DNA from: Eubacteriales bacterium
Lineage (GTDB): Bacteria; Bacillota; Clostridia; Lachnospirales; Lachnospiraceae
DNA: 64,000 nucleotides
NCBI GenBank assembly: GCA_030527665.1
Contig: JAUNAK010000003.1
Location: forward strand, 10,942 to 74,941
Direction: 5' to 3'
Shown in pieces: positions 2,164 through 14,068 of the stretch. The position numbers and the translations under genes are program-made. Each line of letters starts with the position of its first letter. Position 1 is the stretch's first letter. Under the pieces are notes generated by a model. It worked only from the letters and a program-made list of their open reading frames with translations, made no database searches and was not told where the DNA came from.

Positions 2164-4143
2164 TTATGCATTCTTATAGTTTACGGTTACCGCTCTGGAA
2201 TAGGTGTACACATAATTGCCGTCCTCATCGATGTAGCGGATATAGGCTCTGGCAACATAATCGCTGGAAGCCGATCTGGCCGTAAAGGTTGCCGAGAAGG
2301 AACCATCCTCCTTGTATGCACTCTCTTTAAAGCTTACATTGGTTCTTCCTGCGGTTCCGATGGTAAGCTCCTTGTTTCCCAGCTTTGATTTCTGAATAAA
2401 GATGATACCGTGGGAAACCACCTCGTAGCACTCATCCTTCTCCGTAAACTCACGGAAGAAACCGGTAAGTTTGATCTTCGGAGAAACACTGCCCTTTCCG
2501 GTAAAGATACCTGCAGACGGAGTCATTTTGGAAGCAAGCTTTGCGATCACCTCGGTTCTGGTTACGCCGCAGGAACCACAGCGGTACAGGCGAAGTCCCG
2601 TAGATGTCTTCGATGCTTTCACGATATCGGTACCGTTATCCCATGCATGCGCAAGCTTCGGGATCACCTCTGTATAACTGCTGTCACATGCATTGCACCG
2701 GTAGGTCAGTACACCGTCCTCTTTGCAGGTGGCAGGCTTTGTAACCTCTCCTGCATAGTAATGTCCGCGGGCAGGAACCGCATAGCCGGATGCAAGAAAA
2801 GCATTTTCTCTTGCACAGTAATAATCGCCGGAATATCCATCTTCGGTACAGGTCGGATCAACAGCATTTCTTACTTCAAACGCATGTCCGAATGCAGGAA
2901 CGCTCTCTCCTTCCTGCACGATTTTCTGACAGGTATTGCACCACAGATCCCCGCTGTATCCGTCCTCGGTACAGGATGCTTCTTTTGCATTCCGAAGTTC
3001 GGAATCTTTATGCAGGCACTCTTTCTCCGTAACCTCGATCTCATAAACAGAAGAATCGTTTCCATCCTCGGATACGGTAACCACGCGCACGATCTTCCTG
3101 TCATCTTCTTCCACTGCCGGAAGGACGGTATATGCTGCATTCTCCTCTGCATCCGCAGTAATAACCGCTTCGTCTGCAGCAGCTGCAGCTTCGCCGGTAA
3201 AATGCCTGGAGTCTCCCTTTTCTTCGGCTTCCGTACCGTCTACGTATATAGCATTCAGTTCAGACGATGTCTGCGGTACGACCGTACCCTTCACGCCTTC
3301 CAGTTCGGCTTCTATCAGAGCAACACAATTCGCTTCACCTTCTGCATTTGTCGGGCTCAGAAAGGTAATACGAAGGGTATTTGCCTCTACTGCTTCTGTA
3401 AATGTATACACATATTCACCGCCTAGACCGTTTTCTGCCCTGCTGATCTCGTTCTCTTCATAGCCAACGGAACTGTACTCGGTGCCGTCCATCGAATACT
3501 CAAACCAGATGCCCGCCGGATATACAGCCGTCCGGTTATCCCAGTAATAAACCAGATCCGCGCTGTTGATCTGATGCGGTGCATCCCAGGAAAAAGAGAG
3601 CGATACGATATTGCTGTTGTTTCTGTTATTGTAATTCGACCATCTCTCACTGGTATTATCAACGATCTCTTTATTGCCGTTGACGATCGATGCAAGTTCA
3701 TCTGACTGCAGGGACGGATCTTCAATGCTCTGCGAAAGTACAGCTGCCGGTGCCGCATTGGTTTCACCGGTGATATCATAGGAAGCTTCCGCAACGCGTA
3801 CGCTGCATGTCACCGGAAGCGTCAGGCTGTCATCAATTACAGCGGAACCCTGTACAACGACTATACTGCCGACAGATGCAAACATGGAACGTTCGATTGA
3901 CTCCCAGGTTACCGCAAATTCTCCTGCTGTTTCTCCATTCTGATCCAGTCCGATCACTGTCTTCGGAAGTACGGGCAGCTGAAAAGGAGCCGTTGCTGCA
4001 GAAATATTCAGCAGAGCTTCACATACTCCCTGTTCAATCTCTGCGTTCTGCTCATCCGCAAATCCCGGAACTGCCGCAGATGCTGCAAAGACGGATGCCG
4101 ATACAGCTAAAACAAGCGTTTTTTTCAAGAAATTGTTTTTCAT
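2164..4143 (-). CDS. Secreted modular surface protein (Ig-like/Big_4, F5/8-type-C-like, Cys-rich CTEDG repeats)
   Basis: Signal peptide MKNNFLKKTLVLAVSASVFAASA with an RBS before ATG 4143. Contains LPKTV...VTWE Ig-like repeat, a discoidin-like segment, four H...ATC/SCTEDG...CxxC repeats and a C-terminal ARAYIRY domain. Confidence 0.75.
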   Translation of the reverse strand: MKNNFLKKTLVLAVSASVFAASAAVPGFADEQNAEIEQGVCEALLNISAATAPFQLPVLPKTVIGLDQNGETAGEFAVTWESIERSMFASVGSIVVVQGSAVIDDSLTLPVTCSVRVAEASYDITGETNAAPAAVLSQSIEDPSLQSDELASIVNGNKEIVDNTSERWSNYNNRNNSNIVSLSFSWDAPHQINSADLVYYWDNRTAVYPAGIWFEYSMDGTEYSSVGYEENEISRAENGLGGEYVYTFTEAVEANTLRITFLSPTNAEGEANCVALIEAELEGVKGTVVPQTSSELNAIYVDGTEAEEKGDSRHFTGEAAAAADEAVITADAEENAAYTVLPAVEEDDRKIVRVVTVSEDGNDSSVYEIEVTEKECLHKDSELRNAKEASCTEDGYSGDLWCNTCQKIVQEGESVPAFGHAFEVRNAVDPTCTEDGYSGDYYCARENAFLASGYAVPARGHYYAGEVTKPATCKEDGVLTYRCNACDSSYTEVIPKLAHAWDNGTDIVKASKTSTGLRLYRCGSCGVTRTEVIAKLASKMTPSAGIFTGKGSVSPKIKLTGFFREFTEKDECYEVVSHGIIFIQKSKLGNKELTIGTAGRTNVSFKESAYKEDGSFSATFTARSASSDYVARAYIRYIDEDGNYVYTYSRAVTVNYKNA

Positions 4144-4454
4144 TTCCCTTCTCCTGTGTGTAAAACATAAAATCCCAACTATTACCAATAGCTTTTGACG
4201 TTTCGGATATATTTATTCCGCTTCCGAACCCTCATTATTCCCATTGATATCCTACACCTTTCCTATTATTTGCGCAACTTCTTTTATATGTTTTCCTAAT
4301 TTTCGTAATATATCTCTAAGTAAAAGCCCACCGGACATTCTTTTGCCTGCCTGGCAACTATGAAAAACACGTTTTGCGAGTTTCTCAAGTTGTCGCGGCG
4401 CTCCTTGAATGCTCGTGCCAGCACGGCATTCTCATCGCTGCCCGCACAAACACA

Positions 4455-4511: not shown

Positions 4512-5624
4512 TTATTCTTCATACTCCCGAATCATAATAACACGGGCATTGTCATTCGTATAATGCTCCGGATAGATCGTCATCTCCATCCCCGGTTCCA
4601 GTCCTTCCAGCTTCGCGGTATAGGTGATACCTCCCAGATACATATTATCTGCCGTCAGCTTATAAAAGATACGAATTGCAGGAAGAGTCTCCCCGCTGAT
4701 ATTGGTGATGGTGATTCCATCTTCTTCAGCCGCTGCTGCCGTAACCTTCTCGCCAAGCATGCCCGCATCGCCGTAAGCGACCGTTACCGCACCGGGATAT
4801 ACCATGGTATCGGCATAGGCTGCCTGATTTTTCTCCAGAACAACTACGCTCTCACCAGCCGGAATCGCCGATGCTTCAAACTGCCAGGCTGCCCCGTCTG
4901 CGATCACTTCAAACTGTACCAGACTGATCAGACGATCTCCGGTATTCTCTATGATTGCAGCAGGCACATTGCTGCATTCTGTATCCAGCATCTGTTCGAT
5001 ATAGATACCTTCATACGGCCGGATTCCTTTCAGCCGCAGCGGTGTGTTTCCAAGCATGCCGTCATATTCCGACGCCTGCATAGAAGCTGTATCTTCTTCG
5101 CTTTCCACAGCCGGATTCTCCGGACTTCCATAGACCGGAAACTGCTCCAGGTCCACTTCATCCATATTGGCTGTTCCATCTGCACTTCTTCCGGTCTGTA
5201 CAGTATTACTGCTGCCGCTTTGCTCCGCTGCATCATCGGTCTCATTTACAGGAGGTGTACTGCTGTCCGGCTTCTGTTCTTCCTGCAGTACGGCAGTTTC
5301 ATCCGTTTTCTCCTGGTCCGATGGCTCGGAAGTTACCCTGATTCCAGTTTCTTCATCCGCGCCGCCAATACTCGTGGAAGAAGTCTCCCCCTTTTCCTGC
5401 TGCAAGGTCTGCTCTGCGGGCGTCTGCACAGCAATGCTGCTGTCTGCGGCAGTATCGATTGTCTGTTTCTCTGCCTCCTGTGCGGGTCTGCCGGCTGCAA
5501 GCTTTACTGCAGCGACAGCGATCACCAGAAGCACAAGAACAAGCACTGCAATTCCAACCGGGGTTTTGACCCATGCCTTGATTTTTTCCATACCTTCCGG
5601 ATTCTGTTCCTTCTTATTGCTCAT
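4512..5624 (-). CDS. Membrane-anchored hypothetical protein (N-terminal TM, acidic linker, C-terminal beta-rich domain)
   Basis: Hydrophobic stretch PVGIAVLVLVLLVIAVAAV, then an E/T/S/D-rich linker and a globular C-terminus; starts 9 nt after the rSAM stop with an AAGGAG RBS. Confidence 0.8.
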   Translation of the reverse strand: MSNKKEQNPEGMEKIKAWVKTPVGIAVLVLVLLVIAVAAVKLAAGRPAQEAEKQTIDTAADSSIAVQTPAEQTLQQEKGETSSTSIGGADEETGIRVTSEPSDQEKTDETAVLQEEQKPDSSTPPVNETDDAAEQSGSSNTVQTGRSADGTANMDEVDLEQFPVYGSPENPAVESEEDTASMQASEYDGMLGNTPLRLKGIRPYEGIYIEQMLDTECSNVPAAIIENTGDRLISLVQFEVIADGAAWQFEASAIPAGESVVVLEKNQAAYADTMVYPGAVTVAYGDAGMLGEKVTAAAAEEDGITITNISGETLPAIRIFYKLTADNMYLGGITYTAKLEGLEPGMEMTIYPEHYTNDNARVIMIREYEE

Positions 5625-5633
5625 GTTTTCTCC

Positions 5634-6794
5634 TTACTCCATCGTTCCGGTATATCCGGACTTTCCTTCTTCCATCTCTTCCAGAACCTGCCTGCACGCA
5701 TCTGTATAGCATTCCGTCATCCGGCATCGGTACAGCGGTTCCTTTTCATAATCCCCGCTCTCGGCAAGCACCATCGCCGCACAGACCCCGCATTTCTTCC
5801 TTGATGCACAGGATGTACATTTTGCAGGCATACGGATTGCAGCCGTTCTCTGTACGATCGTTTTCCATGCACCGGCAAAACCCGTTTCAATAATATCTGC
5901 AGACGGCTGATCCAGCATACCGCAGGAAAGCATCTTTCCTTCCCATGTGACCCAAAAGGAGGATTTTCCCGCATGACAGCGAATGCCTTCCCGCTCCTCT
6001 GTCGTCTCCGTCGTAAAATCCAGACAGCTGTCCTCTGCCAGCATAGTATCCGTCCGTTTTCGGAATGCTTTCGGTCCCATATTGTACAGCTGGTTCCAGG
6101 CACTGTAGTAAGCTGCTGTTTCCGGTGTGAAACGGTCGTTTCTCCCGATATTTTCTCTTCCCTTACGGATCGGCGGAAACAAGTAGGTAACTGTCTGGAT
6201 ATACAGCTCTTCCTCTGCGGCGATCTTCCGAATAGCATGAAAATCCTCTGCATTATACGGAGTAACGGTATAATTCAGTTTTACTTCGATGCCTTCCCGC
6301 TTTAACAGATGTATTCCGCGCATGACCTGATCAAATCCCTGTGGATTGGCACACAGCCTTGCATACGATGCGTTGGAGGCTCCATACAGGGTAATGTTGA
6401 TGCGGATCGGTGGTCTCTCTTTCAGCCAGCTGATCACCTGCTCATCGATCAGCGTACCGTTGCTGTTGATCGTGAGTACAAATCCCATGTCATGCAGTTC
6501 TTCATAGATCTCCCGGAAATCCGGCCGCAGAAAAGGTTCTCCGCCGGTCAGAAGCAGGAACAGCAGCCCTTGTTCCCGGGCCTCTCTTCCGATACGGATC
6601 CACTCCCCGGCAGGCAGAAGATCCCGTCCCATTTCTTCCCGCGTCTTTCGTACATAGCACATTCTACAGTTCATATTGCACATCGGAGTCAGTTCAAACG
6701 TGCCTCCGATCGGAATCTGCAGACGATCCGCTTTTTGATACAGATAGGTATTAAGTCCGGGAAGTTGATACTGTACATTCATCCGCTGTCCCAT
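5634..6794 (-). CDS. Radical SAM/SPASM-domain protein, putative peptide maturase
   Basis: CNMNCRMC (CxxxCxxC), LTGGEPFL and a 7-Cys SPASM pattern (CHAG...SC...CTSC...CGVC...C). An alternative start lies at 6782. Confidence 0.92.
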   Translation of the reverse strand: MGQRMNVQYQLPGLNTYLYQKADRLQIPIGGTFELTPMCNMNCRMCYVRKTREEMGRDLLPAGEWIRIGREAREQGLLFLLLTGGEPFLRPDFREIYEELHDMGFVLTINSNGTLIDEQVISWLKERPPIRINITLYGASNASYARLCANPQGFDQVMRGIHLLKREGIEVKLNYTVTPYNAEDFHAIRKIAAEEELYIQTVTYLFPPIRKGRENIGRNDRFTPETAAYYSAWNQLYNMGPKAFRKRTDTMLAEDSCLDFTTETTEEREGIRCHAGKSSFWVTWEGKMLSCGMLDQPSADIIETGFAGAWKTIVQRTAAIRMPAKCTSCASRKKCGVCAAMVLAESGDYEKEPLYRCRMTECYTDACRQVLEEMEEGKSGYTGTME

Positions 6795-7665
6795 CCTCCT
6801 TCATTTTTTCCTTCAGACACTGCACCGCCTGTTCATCCGGTGTACAGGCCAGCAGATATACCGGAATGTCCCCCGCAAGCGTAATCAGTTCCTGCAGGAT
6901 CCTTTCCTGCAGCTCACGGATCCAGGAATAGACAAACGTCTCACTGAGCATTCGTTTAAAAGCTTCTGTCACATCCAGACGCCGGATCCGGCATTCCTTC
7001 GCCTGCTCCAGAAATACAATTGCCTGTATGGACGCCGAATCATTCCGATAGATTCCGGATGTCCCTGCGTAAGGCAGACCGTACGCCTTCCAGTCTCCGG
7101 CAATTCTGCGCACGCCGGTTCTGTCACCATTGATGATGGTCCATCCCTGCAGTTTTTCCCAAAGCTCTGCCTGCGTACTCTTTCCGGCACCGCTGCGTCC
7201 GGAAAACAGAATTGCCCGGTTTCCTTTACAGATGCATGCGCTGTGCATAATAAAGGCACGCTTCAGATTCAGGATCATGGTCAGTTCCATATGTGTAAAC
7301 AGCCCTAGCGCCGATTCCAGATTGATCTCCGTTCCGATTCCTCTGCACAGCAGCTGAACAGGCCCCGTTCCTTCCTCTGCACGCAGATTGGTCTGCAGAC
7401 AGAAATACGGCTCTCTGCCCACATTGACCCGCTCATATTTCATAAGCGTACTGCCCGTCAGATAATACTGCGATGGCTGATTTTCAAATATTTTATATTC
7501 CTCCGAGGGCCTGTCATCGATCACATCGACCAGTGTCCAGTGTACGATGAAATCCGCCTCCCGGTTATTTTCCTCTTCAAAATCCGCAAAACGCTCCCCG
7601 GATCTCCATGCAAAGGGAGCCTCGATCTCTATGATATAATCGGCGATCCGATATTTTTTATTCAT
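6751..7665 (-). CDS. HPr-kinase-like P-loop protein, putative peptide kinase
   Basis: MHSA...AILFSGRSGAGKSTQ Walker A motif followed by IINGDR, a layout typical of HprK-related/ScmC-like proteins. Its 3' end overlaps the rSAM start; start chosen at MNKKY (alternative 7677). Confidence 0.75.
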   Translation of the reverse strand: MNKKYRIADYIIEIEAPFAWRSGERFADFEEENNREADFIVHWTLVDVIDDRPSEEYKIFENQPSQYYLTGSTLMKYERVNVGREPYFCLQTNLRAEEGTGPVQLLCRGIGTEINLESALGLFTHMELTMILNLKRAFIMHSACICKGNRAILFSGRSGAGKSTQAELWEKLQGWTIINGDRTGVRRIAGDWKAYGLPYAGTSGIYRNDSASIQAIVFLEQAKECRIRRLDVTEAFKRMLSETFVYSWIRELQERILQELITLAGDIPVYLLACTPDEQAVQCLKEKMKEDGTADECTVSTSRT

Positions 7666-7692: not shown

Positions 7693-7846
7693 CCAAAAAC
7701 TTGTGCAGCTGCAGCGCACTTGCTGCCCGGCAGTATCATCCAAAGTTCCTATTCCAAAATCGTGTACGCCTGCCGCGCACCCGCTGACCCGGCAGCATCA
7801 CCCATGGTTCCTGTTCCCAAATCCTGTGCGCCTGCCGCACACCTGC
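7693..7846. repeat. Imperfect ~62-bp tandem repeat, about 2.5 copies
   Basis: Matching motifs recur at 7693/7754/7816, CCCGGCAG at 7726/7788 and GTTCCT at 7745/7807. Confidence 0.8.
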
Positions 7847-7890
7847 AGCTCGATTCGTATTACGAATACTGCCGCCTATGACAGAACATA

Positions 7891-7910
7891 GCCGGGTCAA
7901 AAGACCCGGC
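7891..7910 (-). terminator. GC-rich stem-loop downstream of the precursor-like peptide gene
   Basis: GCCGGGTC-AAAA-GACCCGGC about 25 nt after the peptide stop. There is no clear U-tract, so it may be a stabiliser or partial terminator. Confidence 0.55.
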
Positions 7911-7934
7911 CATACTCTGATACCTATCCTGTTC

Positions 7935-8210
7935 TCAGGATGTGAACACCTGTACATTATCTCCGCCTGAGTTGTAGCACCAGATGCCGACGGAATTGGC
8001 ATCCTCGACATAGGCATCTCCACAGGCATCCTGGTTACTGTAAGCAATAACAGCACCGTTATCCATCCAGGCACAGCTGTATGGATCTCCCTGTGCGGGT
8101 CCTCCCATACTGCCGCCGCCATTTGAACCTGCACCGCATGCTCCGGCAATGTTTGCCGATAAAGAATACTGCTCAAAATAGACGGCAGGCTTCAGATATT
8201 TCTTCTTCAT
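7935..8210 (-). CDS. 91-aa putative RiPP precursor peptide
   Basis: Strong RBS (GGAAAGGAG). Leader MKKKYLKPAVYFEQYSLSANIAGAC, Gly-rich acidic core with Cys25/46/63/78, C-terminus VQVFTS. Lies in an operon with RRE, kinase-like and rSAM genes. Confidence 0.75.
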   Translation of the reverse strand: MKKKYLKPAVYFEQYSLSANIAGACGAGSNGGGSMGGPAQGDPYSCAWMDNGAVIAYSNQDACGDAYVEDANSVGIWCYNSGGDNVQVFTS

Positions 8211-8225
8211 TTTCTATCTCCTTTC

Positions 8226-11200
8226 CTACCGTGTAAATACTCTTGTGAATGCACTGACAACGCGTGCTGTCCACTCTTTCAGAATCTCTGAATTTCTTTT
8301 GGTCGTGTTATTCTGAATGATAACATCAACAGAGTCTGCGGAAATCGTAGTTCCCTCTACATGTGAATCGGCATCCGGTTCCGTCTGACTGAATGTTGCT
8401 GCATAATCCAGTGTATTGTAACCGGTATTCAGCAGCTGCTCTTTCTGTGCTTCCGTCACACCTGTTACACGAATTTCTGTAATAGCCAGAAGATTATTGC
8501 CCTCATTCTGAATAACCACATGTCCGTCTGATGTCGGTGTGATCGGATAATACAATTCAGCTGTGGAAGTAACGTCGATCGACTTTGTACCCCAGTCGTT
8601 GGTAACCTTTACCCGGGTACTCTTTCCTTCCGGTGCTTTCAATCCGATGAATACATGATTGCTTGTATTGGAATATCCGGCAATCGTAAATGCAATGCAG
8701 TTCGGGTTGGAGAGATAAACCTCATTTTTCGGACCATCTTTCTCATAAACAGATGCATCCGCTGTAGTATACGGTACATTATCCAGATATACCACTCCGT
8801 TTCCGGAAGCCGATTCTTCATCAACATCTCCGACGTTCGGATCATTGAATACATCCAGTGATCCATCGCTGTTGATACTGCTCAGAAGTACATCACGGAC
8901 ATTTGCATAGGCATATTCATTTTCAAATGCCTGATTATACGCGTCATATGCAACTGCGCTGTCCGGATTCTCCTTGTCATCTACATCGATCGGATTATGA
9001 ATACGAATGCCATCCAGATAATATGTCGTTTTTTCTCCCTTTGTATTCGGGAACACCTTCAGTTTTACTTTATACTCTGCATGCTCATCCATTACAAAAC
9101 TGAGTGTCGGAACCACATACAGTCCATCACCGGCTCTGTCATACATATTATCCACATACAGAATCTTTTTCAGTGTTTCTGAATCGTCATCATTCTTCAT
9201 GTAGATTCTTGCATAAATTTTGGGAGAAGAAGTATCTGTCTTGGTGAAGATTTCTACACCGGTTCCCTTGAAGGTAAACTCTGCTTCGGCACCGTTTTCC
9301 ATTGCAGTTGCTCCGTCGTCACTGAATCCCTTCTGATCTTCATAAGATGCATCATAGCCGTATACCGTATTTTCACTGGACTGTACTTCATTTGATATAA
9401 TTTCATTTGCAGAATAATCTCCGCTGTATTTGATTACCGTTTTTCCATTCGCAGAACTGAAATTATCCTCATAGTAAACACTGGTTGCCGGAAGAATCGT
9501 TACTTTTGCAATATTCTCTGCATTACCTTCCGCAGCACTGTTTCCGACAACATACTGCAGAGTATCTACCTGGTCCATAAAGGTATTGGGAGTATATCTG
9601 ATCTTGGTTCCTGCTTCTATTGCTGCCGTTCCACAGGAAAGTCCAAGATCCTGTGCAGCAAACGGATCATCCGAAATATCAACTTCCGCACCGTCACTGC
9701 TTATTTCAGACTTATACTCGCGGATTCCGCCGATACGCGGATTGGTTTCATTCAGAATATCATTTTTCAGAACATCGATATCCACCGGTCTTCCATAATC
9801 AAGAACGACCAGATCATCATGCGCTTCGGAAACCACTTCGTTCTTACATACATAACGATACGACGGAGCAGCTGCTCCCTTTGTTACAGCTGTTGCCTTT
9901 GCGATCTCCAGTTCCGGGCTCTGGTGTCCGTTCTTGTTGATCGTATTGCTTCCCAGTCCAACGGCTTCCCAGGAAGTTACCGACTGCGGCTCCTGACTCT
10001 CTACAAAATATACGTAGTCCGGATCCGTGTCATCATACAGATCCTTCTCAATATAGAAGCTGACACGCTGATCACCTTTCATACTGAATTTGCCGTCTGC
10101 ACTTGTTGTTCCGGTTTTTACCAGTTTGTTATTACTGTTATATACATAATATGCAGTTCCGGCAAAAGGCTCAGCAGATGTATTCTTTCCGGATTTTTTG
10201 TATGCAGTAAACTCAAATTCCAGATCATTCAGCTTATTCTTAAGTTCCGTGTCCGATTCAGAAACCGTATTGGTAACTGCTTTTGTCAGACTTACTACCC
10301 TTTTCTGCGGAAGGTTGAATTTGATCCGGCAGTTGGACAGATTGCCGCCTCGCTCCAGGTAAAATACCTGCAGAGTATGCGGCGTCGTGGAACTTCTCCA
10401 TTCCGTATCACTGGTTCCCAGAGTTGTCCACAGATTCTGCTCGTCTGCATAATTGCGATTTCCCCATCTGTAGGTAATATCTCCGGTCGCAAAGTTAACC
10501 GCTCCCTGTACAGCATCATGAATTCCACCGATGTCAAGTACCAGTTTTCCATCGATGAATACCCATACATCATCATCGCCGGTAAATTCAAAGCTGATCG
10601 GCTGACCATTCTCGTCTCCGTTGATCTTACCATTCTCCGTCATGAAGAACTCTGTAGAAAAGGTCATGCCGAAATGGATGTTGCTTTTTCGGTTTTCACT
10701 ATAACTGTTTCTTGGATAAAACGGGAAAAAGCCGTATCCGTTTCTGCTGCTTCCTGTCAAAGTAGCATTGGAACTTGGGTAACGATTCTGAAAGTGTACA
10801 TCATAGGTTGCTGAATTCAGCTCATAATATCCGGTACGACTGTTGTACTGAAACGGAACCTGCACATTGGTGTATGTATATTTTCCATTGGCACTTGTCG
10901 TTGGATCCAGAATACCAATATTGTCATATTTGATATTGATATTACCGTTTGCATCCAGCGTATCTTCTGCAATACCAAACGTAGGACTTCCGCCGTTGCC
11001 TGTCCAACGGTTGTAGGCATAGTTATTATCCTGACCATTATTGAAGAAAAAGGTTCCCCTCGCATTGGTCTGGGATCTATTGATGTTCGTTGTGTCATAG
11101 TCGAACATATTTACCGAAAAATACGCCGTCTTATCATCAGCGGCCTGCAGCATGGATTCGTTTTCTGCCGTCTCCTCCAGTGTGTCATCTGCCGCTGCCG

Positions 11201-11279
11201 TTACACCGGTGCCCAGCAAAGTCGTACACATCATGGCGAGGGCCAGAGAAAGCGAAAGTATTTTTTTCCTCTTTATCAT
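8226..11279 (-). CDS. Secreted fibro-slime (PA14-related) domain surface protein with Ig-like modules
   Basis: Signal peptide; fibro-slime signature FEFTGDDDVWVFIDGKLVLDIGGIH and QVFYLERG; VDIDVLKND cadherin/Ig-like module; amphipathic C-terminal tail. Start chosen at ATG 11279 (GTG at 11285 also possible). Confidence 0.82.
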   Translation of the reverse strand: MIKRKKILSLSLALAMMCTTLLGTGVTAAADDTLEETAENESMLQAADDKTAYFSVNMFDYDTTNINRSQTNARGTFFFNNGQDNNYAYNRWTGNGGSPTFGIAEDTLDANGNINIKYDNIGILDPTTSANGKYTYTNVQVPFQYNSRTGYYELNSATYDVHFQNRYPSSNATLTGSSRNGYGFFPFYPRNSYSENRKSNIHFGMTFSTEFFMTENGKINGDENGQPISFEFTGDDDVWVFIDGKLVLDIGGIHDAVQGAVNFATGDITYRWGNRNYADEQNLWTTLGTSDTEWRSSTTPHTLQVFYLERGGNLSNCRIKFNLPQKRVVSLTKAVTNTVSESDTELKNKLNDLEFEFTAYKKSGKNTSAEPFAGTAYYVYNSNNKLVKTGTTSADGKFSMKGDQRVSFYIEKDLYDDTDPDYVYFVESQEPQSVTSWEAVGLGSNTINKNGHQSPELEIAKATAVTKGAAAPSYRYVCKNEVVSEAHDDLVVLDYGRPVDIDVLKNDILNETNPRIGGIREYKSEISSDGAEVDISDDPFAAQDLGLSCGTAAIEAGTKIRYTPNTFMDQVDTLQYVVGNSAAEGNAENIAKVTILPATSVYYEDNFSSANGKTVIKYSGDYSANEIISNEVQSSENTVYGYDASYEDQKGFSDDGATAMENGAEAEFTFKGTGVEIFTKTDTSSPKIYARIYMKNDDDSETLKKILYVDNMYDRAGDGLYVVPTLSFVMDEHAEYKVKLKVFPNTKGEKTTYYLDGIRIHNPIDVDDKENPDSAVAYDAYNQAFENEYAYANVRDVLLSSINSDGSLDVFNDPNVGDVDEESASGNGVVYLDNVPYTTADASVYEKDGPKNEVYLSNPNCIAFTIAGYSNTSNHVFIGLKAPEGKSTRVKVTNDWGTKSIDVTSTAELYYPITPTSDGHVVIQNEGNNLLAITEIRVTGVTEAQKEQLLNTGYNTLDYAATFSQTEPDADSHVEGTTISADSVDVIIQNNTTKRNSEILKEWTARVVSAFTRVFTR

Positions 11280-11333
11280 ATCCACCTCTTTCTAACCTTT
11301 CTGAAAAAAGGTCGTAATACATGCATTTTCTTC

Positions 11334-11409: not shown

Positions 11410-13794
11410 TCAGCCCAGTAATTCCTGTTTCTTTCCCATAAAAACAGCCTTTGTTCTGCTGCTGACTCCGAGTTTTTTATATAGATGCTGCAGATGCGTT
11501 TTAACCGTGGAAATCTCGAGACTGTGTTTCTCTGCGATCTGTTTATTGCTGAGTCCTTCCTCCAGATCCGCCAGCAGCAGCTTTTCCGTTGGGGTCAGCC
11601 GCTCCTTGTTCTGAACGGCAGCCATACTGTTCTGTTTCATCTGCCTGCCGGATTTTCGTATCAGGATCCGCAGATATTCCGTCTCCGGTGCCTGCAGAAT
11701 ATTCGAGTAATGATAGGACTTCCTTTTTACATGCGGCTGCTCCTGCTGTTTCTGTGAATCCAGATATGCATGCAGCAGCTCGCTTCCCGTCTCATCATAT
11801 TCCGTATAGAAGCGTCCGTACCGAAAGCGATCGGAAATGGCAAAGGACTGTGCCGTCTCCCGCAGTGCCGATGCATATTGTTTTTTCTGGTGATGCACGA
11901 TTGCCTGCATAAACAGGATCTCTGCGATGATCCGTGAGGAATCCATTTTCTCCGCTTCCGGCCGGATCCTGTCCAGGATCTGTTCAGCAGCTGCATATTG
12001 TTTTTCCCGAAGCAGCAGACGTGTGTATGCAAACAGCGGGTAAAATTCTCCTTCCACGCTCCACTTTGCCAGATTGTTTCCAAATACTTCCCTGAGTTCG
12101 GTATGATATTTCTGACGCTTTATCGGTCCCGCAAATGCAGCTTTGGCCAGTATAAAACGAAGACGTGTCTGCTCATTCTCCTGCATGAGCCTCTCTCCCT
12201 GCTTCTCCCGATCTTTTTCCGCTGCATGTTCTTCCGTAAAACCAAGCTGTCCGTTTATTTTTGCAAGTACCGGTACATACTGCTCCGGCATTTCAGCCGC
12301 ATATTCCTGCAGCCGTTCCCGGTGTTCCTGCGTAATCTCTTTTTCACGAAACGTTTCTGCCAGATACTCCGCTCTGGCAAATTCCAGATATGCCTGTTCC
12401 TTCCTTTCCAGACATTTCTTCCATATTCGGGTATAGCGATTCTGTTCTCTGCGCAGATCGGCAAAAACAAAAGCCATATCCCGCAGCCCCCACAGGCAGG
12501 ACACACTGCTGCCGACCGGGTGATACAGCCGGCACTTCTGTTCATCACTAAAGGATTCCTCCAACAGCCTGAACCAGTCTTTACCGGACATCCAGGGAGA
12601 AGCAAACTGCAGATTGCAGACGGCTTCCCGGGCTTCCGTCTGCTTCATCTTCTGCAGTTTCTGAATACAGGTCTGCAATGCTTTTTGATTTTTCTGCTGT
12701 ACTGCCAGCATTCCCTTCAGATAGAGAAGACGATGATCGGCGCCCTTTTCCTCCCATTTTCCGGCCTTTCGATAATTCAATGAAAGAAACGGGATCTCCG
12801 TATAATGCCGCAGACAGAATGCCTTCCATTCCTTTCCCCCCAGCTTTTCCCAAAGCTTTCCTGCTTCCTGCAGATTCTCCTGTTCTTCATACAGGCGGGC
12901 AATCATTTGCCTCATCTCGTCCGCTTTCTCCGGCTCCCGGGCAGGGCGGAAGATCTCCCAAACGAAAAATTTCTCCTGCTGCCGCCGGCGATAGAAGATC
13001 CCTTTCCGTTCCAGATCTTCACCGGCATCCATACGATTCTCCGAGCTGCAGATCTTCTCTAATGCATACGGAAGAATACCGTCTGCAAGGGACGCAAGCT
13101 GTACACAATATTTCTCATCTTCACTTAAAGATCCCAGTATCTCTTCCTGCAGCAGTACCTGCATCTCATAACCTGTCAGAAGTCCGGAAACAGAAATTTC
13201 CTGCTCCTGTCCCCGGGTTTTCTCCAGCACAGGCAGAAGTGCTGCGATTCCCGGCCAGCCGCCGCTCTTTGCATACACGGTTTTGCTGCTTAAACGACTG
13301 TTCATTTCTTTCAGAAACGAACGCAGTTCCTTCTCTGTAAACGCAAGCATCGGCTGGGTGATCATTCCCATCTCTCCGTGCCACAGCAGTTCCAGAAGCA
13401 GATGATCCGGTTTTTCTCTGCCAGCAAGCAGAATATGATTCTCCTTTGGCAGCCGCCCGATCGTATCACAGATCCTTTTCCGCAGCTTCTCCGGAAGAAG
13501 CATGGAATAATTATCCAAAAACAGACAGCAGCCGGTCCTGTCTTCCGCATCTGTCCCCTGCACCAACATTTCCGCCAGTACCTCCGGAAGCCTTTCCCGG
13601 TCATTTTCCCTCTGCAGATCCAGTTCTTCTGTTCGGAAATTCGCATCTGCCGCCTGCCGAAGAAACATCCGCGCGGCAGTCGTTTTGCCGCAGCAGGCAG
13701 CTCCCTCTAAATAAATAGAAGGAAATCTTTCGATTTCCTTCTGAATAATACTTCCTCTATCCACTTGTAACCGACTGGTCTCAGTCATTTTCAT
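11410..13794 (-). CDS. MalT-like (STAND/LAL) LuxR-family transcriptional regulator
   Basis: N-terminal Walker-A-like GAACCGKTT and SGGWPG motif; C-terminal LuxR HTH LTPTE...GLSNKQIA...STVKTHLQHLYKKLGV. Confidence 0.88.
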   Translation of the reverse strand: MKMTETSRLQVDRGSIIQKEIERFPSIYLEGAACCGKTTAARMFLRQAADANFRTEELDLQRENDRERLPEVLAEMLVQGTDAEDRTGCCLFLDNYSMLLPEKLRKRICDTIGRLPKENHILLAGREKPDHLLLELLWHGEMGMITQPMLAFTEKELRSFLKEMNSRLSSKTVYAKSGGWPGIAALLPVLEKTRGQEQEISVSGLLTGYEMQVLLQEEILGSLSEDEKYCVQLASLADGILPYALEKICSSENRMDAGEDLERKGIFYRRRQQEKFFVWEIFRPAREPEKADEMRQMIARLYEEQENLQEAGKLWEKLGGKEWKAFCLRHYTEIPFLSLNYRKAGKWEEKGADHRLLYLKGMLAVQQKNQKALQTCIQKLQKMKQTEAREAVCNLQFASPWMSGKDWFRLLEESFSDEQKCRLYHPVGSSVSCLWGLRDMAFVFADLRREQNRYTRIWKKCLERKEQAYLEFARAEYLAETFREKEITQEHRERLQEYAAEMPEQYVPVLAKINGQLGFTEEHAAEKDREKQGERLMQENEQTRLRFILAKAAFAGPIKRQKYHTELREVFGNNLAKWSVEGEFYPLFAYTRLLLREKQYAAAEQILDRIRPEAEKMDSSRIIAEILFMQAIVHHQKKQYASALRETAQSFAISDRFRYGRFYTEYDETGSELLHAYLDSQKQQEQPHVKRKSYHYSNILQAPETEYLRILIRKSGRQMKQNSMAAVQNKERLTPTEKLLLADLEEGLSNKQIAEKHSLEISTVKTHLQHLYKKLGVSSRTKAVFMGKKQELLG

Positions 13795-14068
13795 CGGTAT
13801 CTTCCTTTATCAATACATGGTTTGCATCCAGCTTCTCAATGAATGCAAGAATATCTTCTCTGGCAACAGCTTCTTCTACTTCATATTCTTCAAGTACCGC
13901 CCGGATCATCTCATCCATGTCGGTTCCCTTCTGCAGGAGCTTCCACAGCAATACACCGATCTCATTCAATGTGATCAGCCCGTTGAAATCCAATACGGTT
14001 CTTCCGGTCGGAATCACAATATATTCGCCTGCAATCTCTCTTATTATAAAATCATTTTTGATTTTCAT
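13781..14068 (-). CDS. Stand-alone PqqD-family RiPP recognition element (RRE)
   Basis: 95 aa: FIIREIAGEYIVIP...LITLNEIGVLLWKLL...LEEYEVEEAVAREDILAFIEKL. Its stop overlaps the regulator start by 14 nt. Confidence 0.9.
   Translation of the reverse strand: MKIKNDFIIREIAGEYIVIPTGRTVLDFNGLITLNEIGVLLWKLLQKGTDMDEMIRAVLEEYEVEEAVAREDILAFIEKLDANHVLIKEDTDEND

Follow-up and report, generated by a model that had tools for sequence, protein, structure and literature searches.

A conserved peptide family as candidate substrate of a PqqD, radical SAM/SPASM and ScmC/HprK-like cassette in Clostridia

The window analysed here is a 64,000-nucleotide stretch of a Lachnospiraceae genome labelled Eubacteriales bacterium (assembly GCA_030527665.1, contig JAUNAK010000003.1, positions 10,942 to 74,941), and our subject is a short minus-strand gene within it, at 7935-8210, that encodes a product of 91 amino acids (aa). 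We consider it probable (roughly 0.7) that this product is the ribosomal precursor, and so the substrate, of a cassette that comprises a PqqD protein, a radical S-adenosylmethionine (SAM) enzyme with a SPASM domain and a ScmC/HprK-like protein. If so, it would belong among the RiPPs (peptides of ribosomal origin that are modified after translation), with PqqD as its RiPP recognition element (RRE). The gene belongs to a family that has its own pattern of conservation and keeps a fixed neighbourhood, and the biochemical steps proposed below are those that these sequences would predict. The peptide gene and its signals are as follows.

7935..8210, minus: precursor-like peptide gene, 91 aa plus stop (open reading frame and ~121 full-length homologues)
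8139..8210, minus: leader region, residues 1-24, MKKKYLKPAVYFEQYSLSANIAGA, basic (best-conserved block of the family)
7938..8138, minus: core, residues 25-91 (67 aa), acidic (conservation and core charge in the family)
8218..8224, minus: Shine-Dalgarno sequence AAAGGAG, 7 nt 5' of the ATG (read from the sequence)
7882..7919, minus: GC-rich hairpin of 17 bp, 15 nt 3' of the peptide stop (folding calculation)

The peptide family and its probable leader

The open reading frame (ORF) translates as MKKKYLKPAVYFEQYSLSANIAGACGAGSNGGGSMGGPAQGDPYSCAWMDNGAVIAYSNQDACGDAYVEDANSVGIWCYNSGGDNVQVFTS, with Cys at residues 25, 46, 63 and 78 and the C-terminus VQVFTS, just as a first-pass annotation made from the letters alone had read it. 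ORFs of such length are common by chance, with 137 of at least 40 aa within 20 kb of the window; length therefore carries no weight as evidence and the case for the gene rests on its homologues. An exhaustive HMMER search was needed to find them, a word-indexed protein search with the single peptide having matched only itself. Using phmmer against 1.84 billion cluster representatives we obtained 125 proteins at E <= 1e-3, about 121 of which are full-length (80-113 aa) and align end to end, and a profile search of a collection of 5.8 billion proteins gave 143 clusters at 90% identity, none of them named and none with a Pfam domain. One family member alone occurs in 296 indexed blocks of that collection (164 contigs), and the named genera with the family are Terrisporobacter, Faecalicatena, Fusibacillus, Mediterraneibacter and Faecousia. 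Two longer proteins with repeated matches to residues 36-70 (P0006, 730 aa; P0030, 1815 aa) look like surface proteins with Ig-like repeats and were treated as spurious. The peptide has no match in Pfam or NCBIfam, its profile has none among PDB sequences even at E <= 10, and in the full-text papers searched neither CYNNP, CYNTP nor any of three leader strings occurs, the only hits being words that contain 'cynap'. A family of unannotated clostridial proteins of the form MKKxYxKP...IAxC...CY...FxS, to which the first-pass annotation had pointed, does exist in these 125 representatives. The ORF is no product of chance and belongs to a real, large and unnamed family of gut and rumen Clostridia.

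Positions M1, Y5, P8, C25, C46, C63 and C78 are invariant in the family, K2, K7, E13, Y79, F89 and S91 are conserved in at least 90% of its members, and aromatic residues occupy position 48 (W, F or Y) in 120 of 121 members and position 57 (F, W or Y) in all of them. The consensus reads MKKxYxKPxxxxExFxLSQxIAxxCG...GxP...D...CxW...F...C...CYNNPxGxxxIFxS. The YxKP leader motif, the four Cys and the terminal Ser, whose conservation had been suggested as a check on the first reading, are all three conserved across the ~121 homologues. The leader of the window's peptide carries Y5-x-K7-P8, E13, Y15, L17 and I21-A22 (position 15 is F in 108/121 members), and its V10, in Y5-L-K-P8-A-V10, stands at a position that is I, L, V or F in 108/121. 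Ser91 aligns with a Ser in 111 of 121 members, and the terminal residue is Ser in 104; the members that do not end in Ser mostly run one or two residues beyond the aligned one.

The core is marked by the invariant Cys25/46/63/78, the aromatics at 48 and 57, C78-Y-N-x-P and the terminal F89-x-S91. It is acidic, as had been noted from the single sequence: residues 26-91 hold seven D/E and no K, R or H, and the median net charge of the core across the family is -6. Four aromatic triads had been pointed out as well (W48-M-D, Y57-S-N, W77-C-Y and Y79-N-S). All four are present; of these, Y79-N-[NAST] alone holds as a triad across the family, and W77 is not conserved.

The end of the leader had been placed near NIAGAC, and here a conservation boundary and a fall in predicted confidence agree. 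In an AlphaFold2 (AF2) model based on a 107-sequence alignment, with a mean predicted local distance difference test score (pLDDT) of 59.6, residues 1-20 are extended, lack regular secondary structure and reach pLDDT values of 87 and 78 in two blocks of ten; the score falls at residues 22-29 and stands at 37-61 in the core. Foldseek returned zero fold matches with this low-confidence model. The predicted pattern fits a leader followed by a non-globular core that needs cross-links, and it would also allow a small disulfide-stabilised fold.

Related loci were collected with an alignment of the cassette's radical SAM enzyme as the seed over 185,579 species genomes, which gave 70 loci whose ORFs were then scanned with hidden Markov models; single loci are cited here by their L numbers. 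Where the radical SAM enzyme is distant, the proteins at the position equivalent to that of the peptide are 77-170 aa long and combine the same N-terminal module with unrelated cores, and they have no Pfam or NCBIfam model. Across the related loci the module can be written [Y/W]xxP...E/QxF...[IV]AxxC; it takes the form MKxYxKP...ExF...[IV]AxxC in some of them and M(K/E)xxW(E/Q)xPR(I/V)xVQxFxxNEYVAAC in many others. Nearly all of these candidate precursors end in Ser (...NPNAS, ...HPNRS, ...HPNHS, ...WETAKS, ...YFWS). A conserved recognition module at the head of interchangeable cores is typical of leaders, and the N-terminal ~24 residues are accordingly read as a probable leader. A sister family of 122-170 aa is encoded between PqqD and the radical SAM enzyme in L051-L093 (for example L077:7480-7881, L071:5143-5577, L088:7466-7888, L062:7379-7891), likewise without a Pfam or NCBIfam model; its leader is of the WxxP form (M-K-K-x-W-E-x-P-R-I-x-V-Q-x-F-x-x-N-E-Y-V-A-A-C), and its C-termini read ...NPNAS, ...HPNRS or ...HPNHS.

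Popov et al. 2026 (PMC13381572) described YxxP leaders in linear polyphosphorylated peptides (LPP) and WxxP leaders in paeninodin-type lasso peptides, each with their respective RREs. The alternation of Y and W in the leaders of the related loci mirrors this discrimination. The peptide family is in this sense one clade of a wider [Y/W]xxP...Ser set of 77-170 aa, which extends the discrimination of Y from W leaders to radical SAM pathways.

The ribosome-binding site, which had been called very strong, is indeed strong, with AAAGGAG placed 7 nt ahead of the ATG, and it abuts the TAG stop (8228-8226) of the upstream gene for a 1019-aa protein. A downstream hairpin had also been noted: it has a 17-bp stem, and the 81-nt stretch around it folds at -36.1 kcal/mol (z = -5.5 by shuffling, with 0/200 shuffles folding equally well). 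It has no clear U-tract and could be an attenuator or a stabiliser. Hairpins 3' of the peptide gene (z < -2) recur in 21 of 26 homologous loci, and for this reason the large gene and the peptide gene look like a highly expressed unit. We suggest that the hairpin probably sets the transcript of the peptide, together with that of the upstream gene, above the transcript of the enzymes.

The cassette and its proposed chemistry

Around the peptide gene the window encodes the following proteins.

13781..14068, minus: discrete PqqD-family RRE, 95 aa (PF05402 at 1.4e-17)
11410..13794, minus: MalT/LuxR-type regulator, 794 aa (domain matches)
8226..11285, minus: secreted protein, 1019 aa, fibro-slime/PA14-like in its N-terminal part (TIGR02148 at 1.1e-14)
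6751..7665, minus: ScmC/HprK-like P-loop protein, 304 aa if counted from the ATG at 7665, the longest ORF beginning at 7743 (below-cut-off matches to HprK_rel_A, HprK_rel_B and ScmC)
5634..6794, minus: radical SAM/SPASM enzyme, 386 aa (PF04055 at 4.6e-27)
4512..5624, minus: membrane-anchored protein, 370 aa (AF2 model and conservation)

In relatives the recurrent gene order begins with the ~1000-aa secreted protein and runs through the peptide, ScmC (PF27840), the radical SAM enzyme and a ~320-aa protein (p320, the 370-aa protein of the window) to PqqD, and the cassettes often continue with an MsbA-like ATP-binding cassette (ABC) exporter (ABC_membrane+ABC_tran) and PF14907 (NTP_transf_5), a nucleotidyltransferase. 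The window's proteins are identical to their counterparts at 48-50% (radical SAM enzyme), 44-47% (PqqD), 35-44% (ScmC), 33-35% over the full length (large protein; L019, L021, L023) and 34-36% (C-terminal domain of p320). Among the 70 loci, PqqD is found in 55, ScmC in 51, the peptide in 30, p320 in 25, the ABC exporter in 25, the large protein in 23 and the nucleotidyltransferase in 19. Most loci come from Lachnospiraceae, Oscillospiraceae, Acutalibacteraceae, Erysipelotrichaceae and Peptostreptococcaceae, and the named isolates among them are Terrisporobacter muris, Fusibacillus kribbianus, Faecalicatena contorta and Coprococcus catus, the last with no recognised peptide ORF at its locus. 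In the window's own taxonomic order the system is rare (7/401 genomes), which indicates a patchy distribution.

The first-pass annotation took the peptide for the substrate that the RRE delivers. The conserved YxKP, Cys and Ser and the co-occurrence with an orthologous PqqD agree with this and make binding the expected outcome. The best PDB sequence matches of the window's PqqD are TbiB1 (5v1u, E = 3e-4), PbaB1 (9x90), LppB (9x8z) and TfuB1, and RREs of the lasso B1 and LppB kind bind [Y/W]xxPx[LVI] leaders, according to crystallography and mutagenesis (PMC13381572). We therefore propose a route in which the basic leader of ~24 residues would insert Y5-x-K7-P8-x-V10 into the discrete PqqD, as lasso and LPP leaders do in B1 and LppB, and the RRE would present the acidic 67-residue core to the radical SAM/SPASM enzyme for cross-linking at the four invariant Cys.

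That enzyme has its CxxxCxxC at residues 39-46, which leaves no room for a fused N-terminal RRE, and a complete SPASM Cys pattern. Its NCBIfam matches (AhbD, NirJ2, ScmE, MftC, PapB and others) all lie far below their cut-offs, for example 50.9 against 340 for PapB and 58.6 against 625 for StsB, and the nearest solved sequences are SkfB, BlsE and SuiB, with SkfB the best. The chemistry cannot be read from these matches; thioether formation is the most economical guess because the four Cys are invariant, and the cross-links would most likely be thioethers of the sacti or ranthi type.

The ScmC/HprK-like protein would then act on the near-invariant Ser91, likely by phosphorylation, as PadeK and ThcoK do on paeninodin precursors. 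Homologues of the protein carry PF27840 (ScmC), and it aligns with the genome's own HprK/P in hhalign at E = 1.5e-5, with the His, the Walker-A GxGKST and an Asp placed on their HprK/P counterparts; the His, the Walker-A Lys and this Asp are invariant in an alignment of 38 sequences. As a single sequence the protein gave only spurious zinc-finger matches in PDB. In lasso pathways, tailoring kinases of the HprK-like type place a phosphate on the precursor's conserved C-terminal Ser (PMC9266682). With three of the four catalytic residues kept, a kinase activity on Ser91 is plausible, not secure. In relatives the PF14907 nucleotidyltransferase may extend the phosphate and the MsbA-like exporter would take the product out.

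The genome of the window itself has a PF14907 transferase and an exporter homologue (44% identical to the cassette exporter) on other contigs. The transferase (G000:C23, L101 112-7042) adjoins LytR_cpsA_psr, VanZ, pyruvyl transferase and GT2 glycosyltransferase genes, and the exporter (G000:C122, L102 4427-12519) adjoins CpsB/CapC and two P-loop ATPase (ParA/MinD-like) genes. Judged by these neighbours, both lie within loci of the capsule or exopolysaccharide (EPS) type. An association with capsule loci was also reported for LPP and paeninodin clusters (Popov et al., PMC13381572).

Several observations weigh against this scheme. A core of 67 aa is long for a RiPP. The cassette encodes no leader peptidase. 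In the window PqqD sits 5.5 kb upstream of the peptide gene, beyond the regulator and the large gene, and in relatives it lies 3' of the radical SAM enzyme. In the ScmC/HprK-like protein NGDR replaces the TDDV of HprK/P, with Gly for the first Asp in 52 of 54 sequences, and all four His-Lys-Asp-Asp residues of ThcoK are reported to be essential (PMC9266682); kinase activity is therefore uncertain, and the phosphorylation of Ser91, likely by analogy, is weakened by the loss of this one catalytic Asp. Related loci with no ScmC within 8 kb keep the terminal Ser too, so that presence and absence do not demonstrate a link between the two. Finally, the pairing of the peptide with a secreted protein of ~1000 aa fits a role as a protein subunit as well as it fits a free peptide.

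Some further features of the loci were noted. The MalT/LuxR regulator is specific to this locus, none being present in the related cassettes inspected, and its start shares 14 nt with the PqqD gene. Tandem double cassettes occur in L019/L020 (14232-20270), L065 (10381-13168) and L025 (10355-13517), where the second cassette has a divergent peptide (for example 83 aa, ...GYGGYFYS, or 100 aa, ...GAFWTS) with its own ScmC and radical SAM enzyme. In L019-L022 (1-6600) the cassettes adjoin Mor, DUF1659, DUF2922, YvrJ, Amidase_2, DnaB/SSB or IstB genes, which suggests mobile or prophage-like carriage, on or beside an element, for several metagenome cassettes. Downstream of the window's cassette, a 674-aa secreted protein (2164-4188, minus) has repeated C-T-E-D-G-...-C-x-x-C motifs. 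In L025 a secreted protein of 591 aa (L025:5310-7085), which stands between the peptide and ScmC, has this repeat and a C-terminal region in common with it (BLASTP E = 2e-7); L047, L086 and L087 have a gap of ~1.7-1.8 kb at the same peptide-ScmC position. A few radical SAM homologues lie on contigs of metagenome-assembled genomes labelled Bacteroidaceae or Bacteroidales (L072, L078, L079, L084), and these could reflect mis-binning or horizontal transfer.

Known systems and other readings

Among the closest known systems are phosphorylated lasso peptides of the paeninodin and pseudomycoidin type (PadeA/PadeK, ThcoK, PsmK/PsmN), with which the cassette shares a [Y/W]xxP leader alongside a discrete PqqD-type RRE (PMC9266682, PMC6993621, PMC13381572), an HprK-like protein, a conserved C-terminal Ser in the precursor and a link to capsule or EPS loci; the related cassettes share the PF14907-type nucleotidyltransferase and ABC exporter as well. 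It differs from them in having a radical SAM/SPASM enzyme instead of a cyclase and B2 protease, a four-Cys core of 67 aa and a ScmC-type kinase-like protein that lacks the first Asp of His-Lys-Asp-Asp. No Asn-synthetase-like lasso cyclase (C) or transglutaminase-like B2 peptidase domain was found in the window's cassette or in those of the related loci. The term 'lasso-type' that had been given to the peptide thus holds for its leader motif and its RRE, but with neither cyclase nor B2 protease among the cassette genes the peptide is not a lasso peptide.

The LPP clusters (lppA-K-B-S-D-N; Popov et al., Nat Commun 2026) make linear precursors of 35-200 aa with a YxxPx[VIL] leader and variable C-terminal parts (PMC13381572). 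They resemble the present family in their occurrence in Bacillota, their conserved N-terminal YxxPx[VIL] and their polysaccharide-locus neighbourhood, and from their core set the RRE and HprK-like protein are present here, the exporter and PF14907 in relatives and unlinked in this genome. The leaders, however, have only YxxPx[VIL] in common (YxxPxVLxHQxIxFETxxS in LPP, YxKPxxxxExFxLSQxIAxxCG here), phosphorylation in LPP is on core Ser3 whereas the conserved Ser here is the last residue, and a radical SAM enzyme is absent from LPP clusters. No SpI/S26-type leader peptidase turned up among the genes called in the related cassettes. Without this peptidase, with a different leader and with a radical SAM enzyme, the peptide is not an LPP.

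Sacti- and ranthipeptide systems (for example SkfB, PapB, CteB) resemble the cassette in their RRE, in a core that contains Cys and in a radical SAM enzyme from the SPASM/twitch group. Here, however, the RRE is discrete and not fused, spacings of 15-21 residues separate the Cys, the set includes a kinase-like protein and a large secreted partner, and the maturase scores far below the cut-offs of the curated families.

The SynChlorMet (SCM)/GeoRSP systems are uncharacterised and defined by comparative genomics only, and to our knowledge the TIGRFAMs description of the SCM cassette identifies no precursor. They share a ScmC-type HprK-like protein, a PqqD homologue and a radical SAM/SPASM enzyme with the present cassette, which has one radical SAM enzyme, not two, and for which a candidate precursor is identified. 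Since PF27840 is recorded on the ScmC homologues and the scores stay below the equivalog cut-offs (ScmC 16.9/125, ScmD 17.3/100, ScmE 82.4/400), membership would apply at the superfamily level only. Literature searches gave nothing relevant on SynChlorMet/ScmC or on HprK, SPASM and RiPP in combination, and papers on lasso mining in rumen and other anaerobes report true lasso clusters only. The combination of a radical SAM enzyme, a leader-binding protein and a kinase-like protein is undescribed in the searchable literature, and what is special here is the long acidic four-Cys core and the constant large adhesin-like partner.

This partner bears on an alternative that we regard as unlikely, namely that the peptide is a cross-linked small protein, a subunit or partner of the upstream large secreted protein, with a structural or cofactor-like role at the cell surface; the radical SAM, PqqD and ScmC set would still modify it. 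QhpC, the gamma subunit of quinohemoprotein amine dehydrogenase, offers a model: its precursor of ~80-110 aa has a leader and four Cys, is cross-linked by the radical SAM/SPASM enzyme QhpD, is exported by an ABC pump and is buried in a larger extracytoplasmic protein. The likeness would be one of logic only, as we detected no sequence relationship to QhpC or QhpD and no QhpA/B/E/G homologues, and QhpD-type models are not among the best 25 NCBIfam matches.

Of the 23 loci with a homologue of the large protein, 22 place it just upstream of the peptide, at gaps of -1 to +50 nt (in the window the ribosome-binding site of the peptide abuts the large gene's stop), and the hairpin behind the peptide gene would make the two a single highly expressed unit. 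What is conserved in the large protein is a C-terminal module of ~500 aa, with zero PDB matches, and the adhesin domain at the N-terminus varies between PA14/fibro-slime and VWA. A 67-aa core with four invariant Cys suits a subunit, and the membrane-anchored beta-sandwich protein is conserved in the cassette too (25/70 loci). In its AF2 model the latter consists of an N-terminal transmembrane helix, a disordered acidic and Ser-rich linker of ~140 aa and a confidently modelled C-terminal all-beta domain of ~180 aa; it has no PDB fold match by Foldseek at E <= 1e-3 and no Pfam match, and, considered as the missing leader peptidase, it gave no sign of being a protease. On the other side, seven of the 30 peptide loci have no large-protein homologue in the stretch covered, some of these stretches being short (L048, L050, L055, L056, L058, L082, L084), in L046 the large protein is downstream of the peptide and not upstream, and AF2 predicts no folded core.

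It is very unlikely that the peptide is an accessory factor (for immunity, regulation or as a chaperone) and that the true radical SAM substrate is another, unrecognised small ORF. The substrate role is our reading of the sequences, and some related loci do hold other small ORFs; between the cassette genes of the close clade, however, there is no further conserved small ORF, the peptide carries an RRE-type leader motif, and its positional equivalent in the distant clade begins with the same leader module. We give least credence to an ordinary small secreted protein or lipoprotein, with MKKK...IAGAC as its signal peptide, disulfide-bonded Cys and no relation to the adjoining radical SAM enzyme: the start is Lys-rich and IAGAC is superficially lipobox-like, but residues 6-20, in which K7, P8 and E13 are invariant or nearly so, lack a hydrophobic h-region, which rules out a Sec or lipoprotein signal peptide, position -3 from the Cys is Ala and not Leu, Val or Ile, the N-terminal module co-varies with the PqqD, radical SAM and ScmC neighbourhoods in 30 loci, and the cassettes of relatives have a dedicated ABC exporter.

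A possible cell-surface role for the peptide

Returning to the peptide as a cassette substrate, it is a candidate substrate for an enzyme set of a radical SAM/SPASM protein, a lasso- or LPP-type RRE and a ScmC/HprK-like protein, and the invariant Y5, P8 and four Cys with the near-invariant S91 make the precursor hypothesis directly testable. With at least 143 clusters at 90% identity, the family is common in the Clostridia of gut and rumen, and for want of a Pfam or NCBIfam model its members are likely to escape annotation pipelines and RiPP miners.

Its constant association with a large adhesin-like protein that is secreted suggests that the peptide functions at the cell surface and not in antibiosis, and such a function would matter for the building of envelopes or biofilms by gut anaerobes. 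We speculate, at rather long odds, that the product is a surface component and not a diffusible antibiotic: an acidic mini-protein cross-linked by the radical SAM enzyme, whose phosphorylated C-terminal Ser would be joined through PF14907 and the capsule and LytR-CpsA-Psr machinery to an envelope glycopolymer, and which would serve as partner or anchor of the anchor-less adhesin and the beta-sandwich protein. If true, this would be a new route of adhesin display in Gram-positive gut bacteria, built from RiPP enzymes.

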